DNA from: a virus
Lineage: Duplodnaviria; Heunggongvirae; Uroviricota; Caudoviricetes
DNA: 33,562 bases
Direction: 5' to 3' (one strand)
Virus record (IMG/VR): IMGVR_UViG_2850808358_000004
In this document: in pieces, positions 4,526-10,605 of the stretch
Layout of the letters: each line of letters begins with the position of its first letter
Position numbering within the stretch: position 1 is the stretch's first letter
Translations under genes and position numbers: made by a program
Notes under the pieces: model-generated
Databases searched by the model: none
Told to the model about the DNA's origin: nothing
Seen by the model: only the letters and a program-made list of their open reading frames with translations

Positions 4526-5055
4526 ATGTTACAGATGAAATTTAAGCCCTGCTTTATTGACGCATTCCGCAACGGACGCAAGACCACATCCCTTCGCCCG
4601 ACGGGGTTTGATTGCTACCAGGCGGGCCAGGAGTCAGCAGAATATTTTCATGAAGACACCCTGCCCCGCAACATCGTTCTTCCCGATTACAGCGCCGGCG
4701 GTACCCTGGTTTTTGAGGAGGGAACCACATTTACCCGCGCATCAGACTTTGCCGGACTCCTGAAAAGACAGCCCTACCGGCAGTATGACAACATTCATCT
4801 GGTCACAGAAAACAAGAACGGCGAAACCGTGCCGTTCGCCGTGGCCTTCATTGCCGATATCGGTGTAATACAGGGCCGCCAGATAACCGATGAAGCGGCC
4901 GTCAGGGACGGCTTTAACCCTGAAAACCATCCCGCGACGAACTCTTTGCATTCATGCGGGACACCTGCCACATAGAAAACCCCAAAAACGAAACCTACTG
5001 GCGGTACACCTTCACCCACATCGTGATGTTGTCGCAGTGGAGGGCTGACGCATGA
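4526..5055 (+). CDS. ASCH-domain (PUA-like) protein, interrupted by a frameshift near 4930-4945
   Basis: ORF 4526..4975 ends ...DEAAVRDGFNPENHP then the C-terminal part (ELFAFMRDTCHIENPKNETYWRYTFTHIVMLSQWRADA) continues in another frame to the stop at 5053-5055; AGAGGA RBS. Confidence 0.5.
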
Positions 5056-5291
5056 AACCCGCCATTATCTGCATTCTGTGCGAGAGCACTGTCACCGGCG
5101 ACCATTACCGCATCAGGGAACGCCACATCAACCCTGACCGTTCGCTGCTGGACAACATCACCGGCCCGGATGATGAACGCGTGATCTGCCTGAACGACGG
5201 CTCGCAGTTACGCGTGCGCAATATCCGGCGCGAAATCACGCTCGAACCCACCCCATTCACACGCGGGAAAAAACCGGAGAGTGACGCATGA
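5052..5291 (+). CDS. Hypothetical early protein
   Basis: 79 aa, ATGA start-stop overlap with the ASCH gene and with dam. Confidence 0.45.
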   Translation: MKPAIICILCESTVTGDHYRIRERHINPDRSLLDNITGPDDERVICLNDGSQLRVRNIRREITLEPTPFTRGKKPESDA

Positions 5292-6558: not shown

Positions 6559-7102
6559 AACCAATGGGGGACCAGGTAAAGCACCGAAGCACGTCAGTGC
6601 ATGGACACAACAGGAAGACGAACTGCTTATCTCGCTTTATCAGGATCACAGCACATGGCAAATGGCTGAACGACTTCAGCGAACCCGCAGCGCAGTGATG
6701 CACCGGATTCTTTTTTTACGTAATCGCGGGTTGATTGGTCGCAAGAAAAAAGCACCGCTGAGTGCAGAAGCCATCGCCTTTCTCATCAAAAACCGTCACG
6801 CAAAAACCGCACGGGAACTGGCCCGGAAGGCGGGATGCAGCGAGTGCACCGTGAGGTACACACTGCATAAACGGGGTTACAGCCTTAAGAAATGCGGCGA
6901 GAGCCACCATTGCACCAGATACAGCGATCGTCTGGCTGAGCTGGTTACGGAGCTACGCGACAGACGCAACATGACGTTCTGCATAATCGCGAAACACATC
7001 AACATCACGATGCAAATGCACATCAGCGATGATACGGCGTTTCACCTCTACAACCGCCGGACCGCCGCCGACGCCCTGTTGTACGAACTGCTGCCGAACT
7101 GA
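6549..7102 (+). CDS. HTH DNA-binding protein, N-terminus likely displaced by a frameshift in the G5 run at 6566-6570
   Basis: ORF track gives 6662..7102; upstream the same frame stays open and protein-like (SAWTQQEDELLISLYQDHSTWQ) but has no start; ATG 6549 has a near-consensus AAGGAGG RBS but is in a different frame; HTH-like segment TARELARKAGCSECTVRYTLHKRGYS. Confidence 0.45.
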
Positions 7103-7423
7103 GTGATCATCATGCACACACAAAAAAAACCGCTTGCCATGTCGCAATCAGTCAGGTTACATTTCCGCTGCACCTCATAAAACGGGTGCCGGGTTTCGCA
7201 GCCCGCTGACAAACATAGCGCACAACCGCGCCAGCGGTTTTTTTGTGCGTACTGTATCGCCACATCTTTTTCGCACACGAATTATGGTGGGGCGTACGGG
7301 GCCGACTTCGGTCGGGCCGGGTTCTATGTTTGCCGGTACTGCGAACCTCGTACGTCTCGCCACCCACAGTTTCGCAGCTCTGGATGGTGAGTTTTCAAAA
7401 CTTACACACATAGAGGCCACATC

Positions 7424-7654
7424 ATGGCAAACCGCAAACAACAGCGCGCATACGCTGCGCGTCGTCACATCCGGACTGAAATCAACCGCAGACTTTTCCG
7501 CGCATCACGCGTCGCGCAAATCATGCACATCAATATGCTGCATGAACGCAGCCACGCGCTGTCAGACAGCTACTGCGCCGCTGTATTCAGCTATCTGGCG
7601 GATGATCTGCACGAGCTTCAACAGCTCATCCAGCAGCAAAACAAACTCCATTAA
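7424..7654 (+). CDS. Hypothetical small basic protein
   Basis: 76 aa, K/R/Q-rich, AGAGG RBS; preferred over the overlapping 198-aa ORF 7134..7730, whose composition looks non-coding. Confidence 0.4.
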   Translation: MANRKQQRAYAARRHIRTEINRRLFRASRVAQIMHINMLHERSHALSDSYCAAVFSYLADDLHELQQLIQQQNKLH

Positions 7655-7726
7655 TTCCTGTTCCGGGCCTTTCCTGCACCTTGCGGCGGGAGGCCTTCGC
7701 ACATCTTTAACAAAGCGAGGTGCAGC

Positions 7727-8116
7727 ATGATTGACCGTCATGACTTCGTAAAATGGGTGCGCACACAGGACACCCGTCTGGCTCCAAAACTTCAGGCAAT
7801 GTTTGATTTCTATCTCCGTGCCCGCGCCAGCCAGGCTCGCACCACAAAACCAGAGAACGCAGGCCCCCTTTATTTCATCGTGGACGACTGTTACCGCGTG
7901 GACTTCACACCACACGGTCTGGCCCTGTACACCCTGACACCACACGGCGACTCCCTGCTGGCGTATTACAACTCCCCTGCCTCCGTGTTTGCAGCAATGC
8001 TGGCGCATCGCACCGCTGGCGGGTGTGCCTCGCTGAGTGAATACACCACTGAGTTTAACCGTCTTTCTGCCCTCTTCTCGCAGGAATGGCAACGCGTGAC
8101 AGGGTGTCAACCATGA
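7727..8116 (+). CDS. Hypothetical protein immediately upstream of the replication gene
   Basis: 129 aa, GAGGTG RBS, stop overlaps the gpA start. Confidence 0.5.
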   Translation: MIDRHDFVKWVRTQDTRLAPKLQAMFDFYLRARASQARTTKPENAGPLYFIVDDCYRVDFTPHGLALYTLTPHGDSLLAYYNSPASVFAAMLAHRTAGGCASLSEYTTEFNRLSALFSQEWQRVTGCQP

Positions 8117-10605
8117 GTGAATTTACCTGGGACTGGAACGAACCACGGCAGGCCATTGACCCAGCCACATTTGCGAAGTATCAGCCTACGCCTGAAACCC
8201 CGTTGCAACAGGCCATACGCTACTACCAGGAAGCAGATCTGAAAGCACAGGAAGTCAGGGAGGCGGAAGAAGAAGCCTTTTTTGTGCAGTCAGACATGGG
8301 TAAAAAACTCATGGTCGCCCTCGATGAGGACGAACGGCGCGAGAAGGTAACACAAAGCATCATCAGCAAGCGCCAGGCAACAGAACAAGACCCGGTGGCC
8401 CGTGCATTTGTCACACTAAAGGCGCTACCTGTTTATCTGCGTGAACCTCTGAGCCGCCGCCTCTCTTTTTTACGTAAGAAGCAGGAATCTGACCGCCAGA
8501 AAGGCAAAAAGAGTCGACCATCAGAGGGCTACGCGCGCGGAACCCTGCGCAAAATATTCGAACGACTGGACCGCACCGACAGCCGCTGGCTGACACCGGG
8601 TTATCGCGCCCTTGCCGGACGCGAACGCCTGGACGATTTGCTGTACCTGCCGCAGCTTAACAAGCACCAGATACAGACGCTGGGCACCATGACGGCGGCA
8701 ATGTTCAGCAGCTCCTTTGAAACACTCTGTGATGGTTTCGGTGCCAGAGATGGCGAGCTGACCATGGAGGTGGCACTGAAGGCGTATCAGATGCTGGCCC
8801 GCATGGCGCTACACCTGCACGCCATGCCTCCACATTATGACGCGCTGACAACAGACAAAGACCGCAAGAACGAACCGGACACGGAACTGCTGCCGGGCGC
8901 AATCCTTCGCCTGACCTGTGCGGACTGGTGGAAACGCAAACTGTGGCTGTTACGTTGCGAGTGGAGAGAAGAACAACTCCGCGCCGCCTGTCTGGTTTCC
9001 AGAAAAACATCGCCCTATCTGAGCCAGGACGCGTTAAGTGAGTTTCGCGCACAGCGCGAGAAAACACGCGATTTCCTGAAAAGTTTCATGCTGGAAAATG
9101 AAGACGGGTTCACGATTGATCTCGAGACAGTGTATTACGCGGGAGTAAGTAACCCGGTTCACCGTAAGGCAGAAATGATGGCCACCATGAAAGGGGCGGA
9201 ACTTATAGCCGAATCCCGTGGCGACAAAGCGGTGTTTCTGACTGTCACCTGCCCGTCAAAATACCACGCAACAACGGAGAACGGTCATCCGAACCCCAAA
9301 TGGAACGGGGCTACCATGCGCGATTCCAGTGATTATCTGGTTAACACTTTTTTTAAAGCCGTTCGTAACAGACTGGACCGCAAGGGCCTGCGCTGGTATG
9401 GCATCCGCACGGTGGAGCCTCACCATGACGGCACGGTGCACTGGCATATGATGGTCTTTGCACATCCTGAAGAAATCGACAGCATCGTGACCATCGCCCG
9501 CGATATTGCCATTCGTGAAGACCGCCACGAGCTGGGCGATGACATAACTCCGCGCTTTAAGGCGGAGTACGTCGACGGTTCGAAAGGTACGCCGACCAGC
9601 TATATCGCCACCTACATCGGAAAGAACCTGGACAGCCACGCCGTGGATGGCATTGACCCGAAAACAGGCAAACCGCGCATCGACGACGAATCAGGAAAGA
9701 CGATGGCAGAAAGCGTGGAACGCGCCATCGGCTGGGCGCGCCTTCACCGGGTCCGCCAGTTCCAGTTCTTTGGCATCCCCTCCCGTCAGGTATGGCGTGA
9801 ACTGCGCCGCCTTGCCAGCCAGATGGCACGCAACCCGGAAGGCCCGCAACGGCTGAAGGATGACGCAATGGATGCGGTTCTTGCTGCCGCTGATGCCGGG
9901 TGTTTTGCCACCTACATAGAGAAACAGGGCGGCGTACTTGTTCCACGTAAGGACTACCTGATTCGCACCGCCTACGACCTCGCAGATGAGCTGAACGATT
10001 ACGGCGAACAGAGCGTACAGATTTACGGGATCTGGTCGCCACTCATCGGGGAATCCTCCCGTGTGTGCACGCATCCGGACAACTGGAAGCTGGTAAGACG
10101 TAAACCGGAAGCGGAAGACAGCGCCCGCGAAAATGGTTTTGACCTTCAGGGCGGCCCTGCCGCCCCTTGGACTCGTGGCAATAACTGTCCCGGTGACGAA
10201 AAAACAGCCGGAACCGGCACAGAAAACAGGCAGCGTGGGTCGCGGCTGACGCTTCCGGAAAGCGGCCTGGCGCACTGGTTGCAGACGTTAACCCGTCACG
10301 AGCGGAAACAGCTCATCAGACAGCTTAAAAATCAGCCGCCCACCACGGATACCGGACAAAATAACACCAGACCAGCATCAGACACCCCTGTCAGGGTGGA
10401 GGTTGTCGTGCCTGTCGACACCACGACCATCGCACAAATCACCCGCGAACTCGACGCGCTGGGTGTGCAGCTGCCTGACGCAGCCATTATTTCCGTGAGT
10501 AACGGTGCCCGCGTTCGCCCGGGCGACGGGCGTATCGCGTACTGGAGCGCCACAACCCGCCGTATCGTCATCACACAGGAGTCGTCAGCGGAGGTAAGAT
10601 CATGA
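8113..10605 (+). CDS. Replication initiation endonuclease, P2 gpA family (rolling-circle HUH initiator)
   Basis: HUH-type motif HHDGTVHWHMMVF and paired tyrosines in TSYIATYIGKN; start taken at ATG 8113 (ATGA overlap with upstream stop) rather than 8086 from the ORF track. Confidence 0.9.
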   Translation: MSEFTWDWNEPRQAIDPATFAKYQPTPETPLQQAIRYYQEADLKAQEVREAEEEAFFVQSDMGKKLMVALDEDERREKVTQSIISKRQATEQDPVARAFVTLKALPVYLREPLSRRLSFLRKKQESDRQKGKKSRPSEGYARGTLRKIFERLDRTDSRWLTPGYRALAGRERLDDLLYLPQLNKHQIQTLGTMTAAMFSSSFETLCDGFGARDGELTMEVALKAYQMLARMALHLHAMPPHYDALTTDKDRKNEPDTELLPGAILRLTCADWWKRKLWLLRCEWREEQLRAACLVSRKTSPYLSQDALSEFRAQREKTRDFLKSFMLENEDGFTIDLETVYYAGVSNPVHRKAEMMATMKGAELIAESRGDKAVFLTVTCPSKYHATTENGHPNPKWNGATMRDSSDYLVNTFFKAVRNRLDRKGLRWYGIRTVEPHHDGTVHWHMMVFAHPEEIDSIVTIARDIAIREDRHELGDDITPRFKAEYVDGSKGTPTSYIATYIGKNLDSHAVDGIDPKTGKPRIDDESGKTMAESVERAIGWARLHRVRQFQFFGIPSRQVWRELRRLASQMARNPEGPQRLKDDAMDAVLAAADAGCFATYIEKQGGVLVPRKDYLIRTAYDLADELNDYGEQSVQIYGIWSPLIGESSRVCTHPDNWKLVRRKPEAEDSARENGFDLQGGPAAPWTRGNNCPGDEKTAGTGTENRQRGSRLTLPESGLAHWLQTLTRHERKQLIRQLKNQPPTTDTGQNNTRPASDTPVRVEVVVPVDTTTIAQITRELDALGVQLPDAAIISVSNGARVRPGDGRIAYWSATTRRIVITQESSAEVRS

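Follow-up and report, generated by a model that had tools for sequence, protein, structure and literature searches.

What occupies the 321 nt (positions 7103-7423) that interrupt an otherwise tightly packed early operon of a P2-family phage? The question arises in a stretch of 33,562 nt, referred to here as the window and meaning the whole of the DNA analysed. The original prediction had described the interval as structured and non-coding, without a convincing ORF, and had proposed that it could be a small RNA, an attenuator of downstream genes including gpA, or a cis element for replication or packaging. The gap itself is upheld, since one ORF stops directly before it and the next credible one starts directly after it (Table 1). 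We consider it probable that the gap holds an RNA immunity cassette of the P4/P1 type, situated in the early operon of a P88-like (P2-family) phage. The region is therefore real but not new in kind, as modules of this type are already known, and what stood as an unexplained structured gap can now be described as a defined regulatory module.

Results

Table 1. Features of the cassette and its neighbours, in coordinates of the window.
Feature	Position	Strand	Remarks
Upstream 146-aa ORF	stop at 7102
Left arm of long-range repeat	7112-7133	+	holds ATG 7112 and the A8 run (7122-7129)
Remnant of eta-like/Ash frame	7134-7730	+	+1 phase relative to the 76-aa ORF; ends in ATGA (7727-7730)
Predicted sigma-70-like promoter	7134-7163	+	TTGCCA (7134-7139), 18-nt spacer, TACATT (7158-7163)
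IsrK-type leader RNA	7170-7244	+	isrK match; equivalent of P4 seqA leader and P1 a1/b1 element
Leader hairpin 1	7170-7189	+
Leader hairpin 2	7190-7205	+	loop carries a1 (7195-7201)
b1	7210-7218	+	within the leader
Intrinsic terminator of the leader	7224-7239, with U7 at 7238-7244	+	terminator scan
Right arm of long-range repeat	7234-7250	+	3' half of the terminator stem, U-tract and GUGCGU
C4/CI-type antisense RNA	7280-7367	+	Rfam match, fold, compensatory changes
First inner hairpin of C4	7302-7315	+	CCGAC-UUCG-GUCGG
b'	7323-7332	+	loop of the second C4 hairpin, UCUAUGUUUG
a'	7339-7345	+	single-stranded junction of C4, CUGCGAA
Downstream target region	7371-7416	+	equivalent of P4 seqC and P1 a2/b2
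a2	7371-7377	+
b2	7405-7414	+	overlaps the Shine-Dalgarno sequence of the 76-aa ORF
Shine-Dalgarno sequence	7412-7416	+	AGAGG, 7 nt before ATG 7424
76-aa ORF	7424-7654	+	next credible ORF after the gap; P4 epsilon (derepression) family; predicted first cassette-controlled gene
ORF129	7727-8116	+	129 aa, phrog_3237; overlaps the gpA start by 31 nt
gpA replication endonuclease	8086-10605	+	PF05840, 426 bits

Genomic context

Sequence comparison places the phage of the window among the P88-like members of the P2 family, in the genus Xuanwuvirus. Its cassette region shares 85-93% identity with those of P88, P884B11, Shae_phiSM and others, and this similarity starts at about 7111, right after the upstream gene, which itself varies between phages. 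Among these relatives, P88 came from mitomycin C induction, and phiSM is spontaneously released. The region is matched in 1398 of 5426 complete E. coli genomes, among which no copy exceeds 92.7% identity over all 801 nt queried, and the literature that we searched yielded no description of the cassette in P88-like phages. A tRNA/tmRNA scan of the window, gap included, returned no match, and inspection by eye revealed no convincing LexA box near the cassette.

Two adjacent RNA families

A scan of the whole 33.5-kb window with Rfam at curated thresholds gave only two matches, which are adjacent to each other and both lie inside the gap. The first is to isrK (RF01394) at 7170-7244, with 69 bits against a gathering cutoff of 50 and model positions 1-77 of 77 covered; the second is to the C4 antisense RNA (RF01695) at 7280-7367, with 81.8 bits against a cutoff of 45 and positions 1-87 of 87 covered. 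Both matches are full length and stand 19-37 bits over threshold. The proposals of a small RNA and of an attenuator acting on genes that include gpA pointed in the right direction, in that two curated families, isrK and C4, are present and their prototypes are antisense regulators.

In the C4 RNA, a 17-bp closing stem surrounds two hairpins, and the minimum free energy fold agrees with the Rfam consensus. The CCGAC-TTCG-GTCGG hairpin that had been noticed within a larger stem is found inside this 17-bp stem and is the first inner hairpin of C4. Likewise, the ACCGC-GCCA-GCGGT hairpin that had been called terminator-like lies at 7225-7238, is followed by T7 at 7238-7244, is flagged by the terminator scan and is the isrK terminator. 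RNA folding and covariation across homologous prophages had been put forward as ways to check the region, and both bear the structures out. The predicted folds, which take the form of isrK and C4, beat dinucleotide shuffles with z about -3 (0-2 of 200 shuffles being as good), and compensatory changes are present in 15 of the 27 pairs of the C4 stems across 21 sequences. The a and b sites described below co-vary as well. In the spacer between the leader and C4, positions 7254-7263 hold GTATCGCCAC, which nearly repeats GTCTCGCCAC (7354-7363) from the closing stem of C4, where it forms the 3' strand; the spacer copy could pair alternatively with the C4 5' strand in the precursor.

A sigma-70-like site directly precedes the leader. 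It matches at 9 of 12 positions, is the sole such site between 6400 and 8200, and has a predicted transcription start near 7170, coincident with position 1 of the isrK model. Its hexamers hold their position in 18 of 18 diverse cassettes with differing spacer sequences, and the predicted promoter at 7134-7163 is the positional equivalent of P4 PLE and of Gifsy-1 PisrK. We assigned the leader to isrK because the c4-a1b1 covariance model (RF03163) scored 22.9 bits on the window, below its gathering cutoff of 46.7; although classed in this way, the leader carries predicted functional equivalents of a1 and b1.

The P88 reference record (L001) annotates a hypothetical protein, SF19_gp13, at 5033-5221 on the minus strand, opposite the isrK and C4 RNAs. 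This is probably a spurious gene call.

Recognition sites that change together

Both recognition segments of the C4 RNA have complements on either side of it. Segment a' (7339-7345) is exactly complementary to 7195-7201 (a1) and 7371-7377 (a2), and segment b' (7323-7332) is exactly complementary to 7210-7218 (b1) and to 7408-7414 (in b2). No further paired a...b targets were found elsewhere in the 33.5-kb window. A pattern scan of viral contigs then supplied 120 P88-like loci, and the analysis covered a total of 116 loci of sufficient length. Their 6 a-alleles and 13 b-alleles occur in 21 combinations, and the three sets of sites change together in relatives whose sequences otherwise agree at about 90%. 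The rearranged L130 is the sole combination that departs from the following pairing: a' with a1 and a2 over 7-8 nt, b' with b1 over 9 nt, and b' with b2 over 6-12 nt when G-U pairs are allowed. The same concerted pattern is seen in lambdoid, N15, P1 and P4 cassettes.

Such three-way co-variation is strong evidence, at the level of sequence, that the a and b RNA-RNA contacts are functional. It further indicates that antisense specificity is under diversifying selection, as in the heteroimmunity of P1 and P7, for which Citron and Schuster (1990) reportedly provided the precedent. A matrix of duplex energies places cognate and non-cognate pairs only about 9 kcal/mol apart because the conserved flanks contribute, and the table of exactly complementary alleles is the better evidence.

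Among the P88-like loci (L019, L002, L036 and L049 are examples), the a and b alleles assort independently of each other. The a-allele UUCGCAG, for example, is found with at least 8 b-alleles, which points to recombination between the two specificity determinants. Recognition alleles that recombine freely within one lineage amount to a natural collection of orthogonal antisense/target pairs.

The genes downstream

The 76-aa product of the first ORF after the target region falls into PF25738 ("Derepression") with 31.2 bits against a gathering cutoff of 27. P4 epsilon, the prototype of that family, itself scores 170 bits, and BLASTP of the 76-aa protein against it gives 30% identity over 66 aa (E 2e-8). 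By these matches the protein is a member of the P4 epsilon family, with a putative role in derepression. The C repressor gene of the phage lies at 2259-2570 of the window, on the minus strand. An NCBIfam search with three neighbouring proteins returned nothing useful, and ORF129 shows no similarity to P4 orf151. It is likely that gpA is the last gene that the cassette places under its control by polarity.

An overlapping frame and an extra A

A second frame, in the +1 phase of the 76-aa gene, extends without a stop from about -320 to +304 in the window, P88, Entero_P88(23) and Shae_phiSM. In about 105 of 114 relatives its ATG at -311 opens an ORF of 205 aa, with a stop at +304 in the form of ATGA. 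When 44 distinct alleles of the gene for the 76-aa protein are compared, no stop interrupts the +1 phase and 1-5 stops occur in the +2 phase, and codon-order shuffles of the gene are free of stops only 6-18% of the time; these figures indicate that the +1 frame is kept open. Its terminal ATGA (7727-7730) overlaps the start of ORF129, and this overlap, together with that between ORF129 and gpA, suggests a chain of translational coupling that would lead into gpA.

The window departs from its relatives within this frame. It carries a run of eight A residues (A8, 7122-7129), whereas the run is A7 in 122 of 122 relatives, and A7 is also found in an E. coli prophage whose upstream junction is identical. 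Through A8 the ATG at 7112 is out of frame and reads a 25-aa ORF that ends at 7180. The A8 allele had 0 matches among GTDB species representatives, and a looser pattern recovered a single contig. The extra A is either a true frameshift defect in the escape route considered below or a homopolymer sequencing error. As a unique one-base change it should disable the read-through frame, and it could mark either a prophage impaired in replication or an error of sequencing.

The absence of a convincing ORF, as originally described, thus holds for the window, where it arises because the A-run is 1 nt longer, but not for the 122 relatives, in which an ATG-started frame of 205 aa spans the region. The label "non-coding" is apt for the two RNA families and incomplete in that a conserved Ash-family frame, broken here by the extra A, overlaps the cassette. 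The original prediction had also named a conserved gene restored by correcting an indel as a finding that would speak against it. The 205-aa frame obtained with A7 is literally such a gene, but the RNA reading stands because covariation at the RNA level is strong. Swaps of alleles rewrite the encoded peptide and keep the RNA pairing, so that RNA and frame coexist, as they do in P4.

Phage_ASH (PF10554) scores 25.8 bits on the window frame at 7134-7730, below its gathering cutoff of 26, and 26.0 bits, exactly at the cutoff, on the intact relative L002. In P4, eta starts upstream of the internal promoter and spans the cassette, and its translation frees transcripts from the upstream promoter from immunity (PMC10111431). 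The window departs from this layout, as A8 puts the ATG at 7112, upstream of the internal promoter, out of frame. Phage_ASH also matches the old "cI ORF" of P4 and over-long lambdoid "antirepressor" ORFs.

PF10554 matches translated isrK-C4 DNA (7134-7730 in the window; 8168-8584 on the minus strand in P4, L017; 1646-2797 in L004) and not P4 epsilon. A survey of P4-like satellites took this family as an "epsilon/Ash" marker (PMC8628076), and PGAP labels the region a partial "ash family protein" pseudogene. The present assignments correct such annotation, in which hypothetical genes or partial "ash family" pseudogenes are placed over the two RNAs.

A long-range inverted repeat

The inverted repeat that had been reported across the region is present. 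Its left arm, CACACAAAAAAAACCGC, is at 7117-7133 as claimed, and its right arm, GCGGTTTTTTTGTGCG, spans 7234-7249, which is shifted rightward by 3 nt from the 7231-7246 originally given. A repeat finder lists the pair of arms as I1/I3/I6. In the A7 relatives the complement between the arms is a perfect 15 nt, compared with 5-8 nt in 14 other cassette families (400 nt upstream). We conclude that the long-range repeat is real and, from this comparison, specific to the P88-like lineage. Relative to the promoter, the A-run of the left arm occupies about -48 to -41, which is the position of an UP element.

Discussion

Proposed mechanism

The Rfam profiles of C4 and isrK are known to detect the CI RNA and seqA of P4 (PMC10111431). 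In the P4 and P1 prototypes of the C4/CI RNAs, antisense pairing blocks translation and causes premature termination of the operon (PMC3632133, PMC10111431). For the present locus we infer by homology the promoter activity, the termination, the processing by RNase P, the dependence on Rho, and the repression of the 76-aa ORF and gpA. On the model of P4, P1 and N15, the early promoter would be off in a lysogen and the internal promoter at 7134-7163 would be active. Most transcripts would end at the terminator of the leader, and RNA that reads through would be processed, with RNase P cutting the 5' end, to yield a stable C4-like RNA. This RNA would pair with a2 and b2 of later transcripts and so block the entry of ribosomes at the epsilon-like ORF. 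The RNA that follows the target is C-rich and G-poor (C/G 1.3-1.8); left untranslated, such C-rich RNA would be terminated by Rho, which would keep the epsilon-like protein, ORF129 and gpA silent. The leader, through a1 and b1, could aid termination, as proposed for P4 seqA, or titrate C4, as IsrK does in Gifsy-1.

In lytic growth, transcripts from the upstream early promoter would escape this control, with ribosomes translating the eta-like frame through the cassette and coupling into ORF129 at the ATGA. Sequestration of the terminator by the 5' arm peculiar to this lineage (7112-7133) may also contribute. In the window itself, A8 would remove the eta-like start, and the escape route would then be impaired unless the extra A is a sequencing error.

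Alternative readings

The leader could act in either direction at this locus. In Gifsy-1, a homologous leader RNA activates downstream translation instead of repressing it (PMC4825925), and by analogy a short IsrK-like RNA terminated at 7244 could act in trans on the read-through transcript here. It would pair with a' and b', open a silent structure and switch on an ORF at AUG 7284, the equivalent of orf45, so that the cassette would be an ON switch for induction and not an immunity device. The above-threshold match to isrK agrees with this, as does the finding that helix b-I mapped in Gifsy-1 corresponds to the pairing of a1/b1 with a'/b' (PMC4825925), a complementarity that is also present here. 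Furthermore, AUG 7284, at the 5' end of C4, belongs to the long open frame that leads up to the start of ORF129. However, the C4/CI homologue is a repressor in P4, P1 and N15 (PMC3632133, PMC10111431), and the concerted conservation of a2 and b2 where ribosomes would bind the 76-aa ORF fits repression of that ORF. We therefore regard an activator of the Gifsy-1 type as a possible but rather unlikely account of the locus. The two views are compatible, as the leader could serve as a decoy for C4.

The immunity cassette could be extended by a role for the long-range repeat (7112-7133 with 7234-7250) as a promoter-selective antiterminator. Only transcripts from the early promoter would carry the left arm, which would capture the 3' half of the terminator and so allow read-through. 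In the modelled 5'-extended RNA, the long-range helix reaches -49.1 kcal/mol, compared with -42.9 when the terminator is forced, and the pair probability of the terminator is 0, compared with about 1 in the transcript from 7170. With A7 the helix is perfect and reaches -51.4 kcal/mol, and the 15-nt complement, long beside that of the other families, also favours such a role. Several observations argue against it. The two arms show no variation among the relatives recovered and hence provide no covariation; the left arm competes at a kinetic disadvantage with the adjacent 5' arm of the terminator; it belongs to the initial codons of the eta-like ORF and would be covered there by ribosomes; and its A-run is well placed to be a promoter UP element instead. 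In addition, the arm is absent from the P4, P1, N15 and lambdoid cassettes. On balance this extension of the main model is doubtful, and we propose it only tentatively.

It is very improbable that the region is simply an Ash/eta-family gene with a frameshift in its A-run and that the RNA structures are incidental. The relatives do carry the ATG-started frame, from which the window differs by one A, and the Phage_ASH scores of 25.8-26.0 bits and the PGAP label are in keeping with a gene. Full-length covariance matches so far above threshold, with compensatory changes in the stems, would nevertheless be left unexplained, and the concerted replacement of a and b sites rewrites amino acids, which shows RNA pairing and not protein to be what is conserved. 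In P4, moreover, the overlapping frame exerts its effect by being translated, side by side with the RNA (PMC10111431). Lastly, a cis element for replication or packaging can be dismissed almost entirely, since its sole support is the position just upstream of gpA, iteron-like or tandem repeats are absent, the direct repeats that do occur are the a and b target sites, and the two RNA families explain all the features.

Relation to known systems

The pair of isrK and C4 is found in P4 (over the leader and cI), in N15 cA and in many lambdoid and Stx phages, and P1 has C4 together with c4-a1b1; the P4 leader scores 60.8 bits on isrK and the upstream element of P1 scores 55.5 bits on c4-a1b1. Of the known systems, the immunity region of P4 is the closest; it consists of the PLE promoter, the seqA leader, the CI RNA (seqB), seqC and kil/eta, and epsilon and alpha lie further on. 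The resemblance to P4 extends to the order of the two Rfam families, the placement of a promoter (predicted in the window) directly before the leader, the complementary sites that flank the antisense RNA, the overlapping eta/Ash long frame that starts upstream of the internal promoter, and the epsilon-family gene followed by a replication gene downstream. The differences are that the host of the cassette here is a full P2-type, helper-like phage and not a satellite, that the spacer from leader to C4 is 35 nt and not 107 nt as in P4, and that the target is followed first by the epsilon homologue, in the place where P4 has kil. Here the long frame and the epsilon-like ORF are in different phases, whereas eta and kil are nested in one frame in P4, and in the window the long frame is in addition frameshifted. 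The replication protein is gpA here and the alpha primase in P4.

With the immI region of P1 and P7, the locus shares the C4 family, the two recognition segments a' and b', the duplicated sets of targets, a b2 that covers the place where ribosomes bind the first small ORF, and specificity alleles that vary among relatives. The upstream element of P1, however, belongs to c4-a1b1 (55.5 bits, against 22.9 for the window on that model), where the window has isrK instead, and the controlled gene is of the epsilon family here and Icd/Ant in P1. The IsrK-STnc1160/orf45-anrP locus of Gifsy-1 is similar in its isrK family membership and, as far as predicted for the window, in its short terminated RNA with read-through, its downstream stable RNA complementary to IsrK and its downstream antirepressor-type gene (PMC4825925). 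There, experiments demonstrated activation of translation in trans by the short RNA, and the downstream gene is AnrP, where the P88-like operon has the epsilon-like gene and gpA.

Cassettes of lambdoid and Stx phages and of N15 cA are about 70% identical to the present one at the nucleotide level. In lambdoid and Stx phages the pair again lies in the early operon, between regulatory genes on one side and an antirepressor (Rha/Ant) with the replication gene O on the other, and GenBank record LC710661 already annotates isrK and C4 side by side. These cassettes differ in that their long frame shares its phase with the Rha/Ant antirepressor and in that they are without the 5' arm of the P88 lineage.

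A P4-type cassette and an epsilon homologue directly before gpA in a P2-type phage link parts of satellite and helper. It is conceivable, though we would not call it probable, that P88-like helper-type phages carry an entire P4-style left-operon module composed of the RNA cassette, the eta-like frame, the epsilon-family protein and the replication gene. In such a module the C4-like RNA would gate a self- or rival-directed antirepressor together with gpA, the 5' arm would act as a promoter-selective antiterminator, and the combinatorial a and b alleles (6 x 13) would define many mutually heteroimmune RNA specificities inside a single phage lineage. If this is true, it bears on how P4 and its helpers exchanged parts.

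Two further observations concern the annotated relatives. Genes called "antirepressor/Rha" in lambdoid and Stx phages are long ORFs that start before the cassette and traverse it (L004, 1646-2797; L005, 1641-2792; L009, 1273-2295), and the long ORF of L004 is in phase with a short antirepressor start just after b2, a nested layout like that of eta and kil in P4. In the Yersinia phage vB_YpM_44 (L012), a match to the ryfA family (134.6 bits) occupies 149-447 on the minus strand, about 1 kb upstream of isrK-C4.
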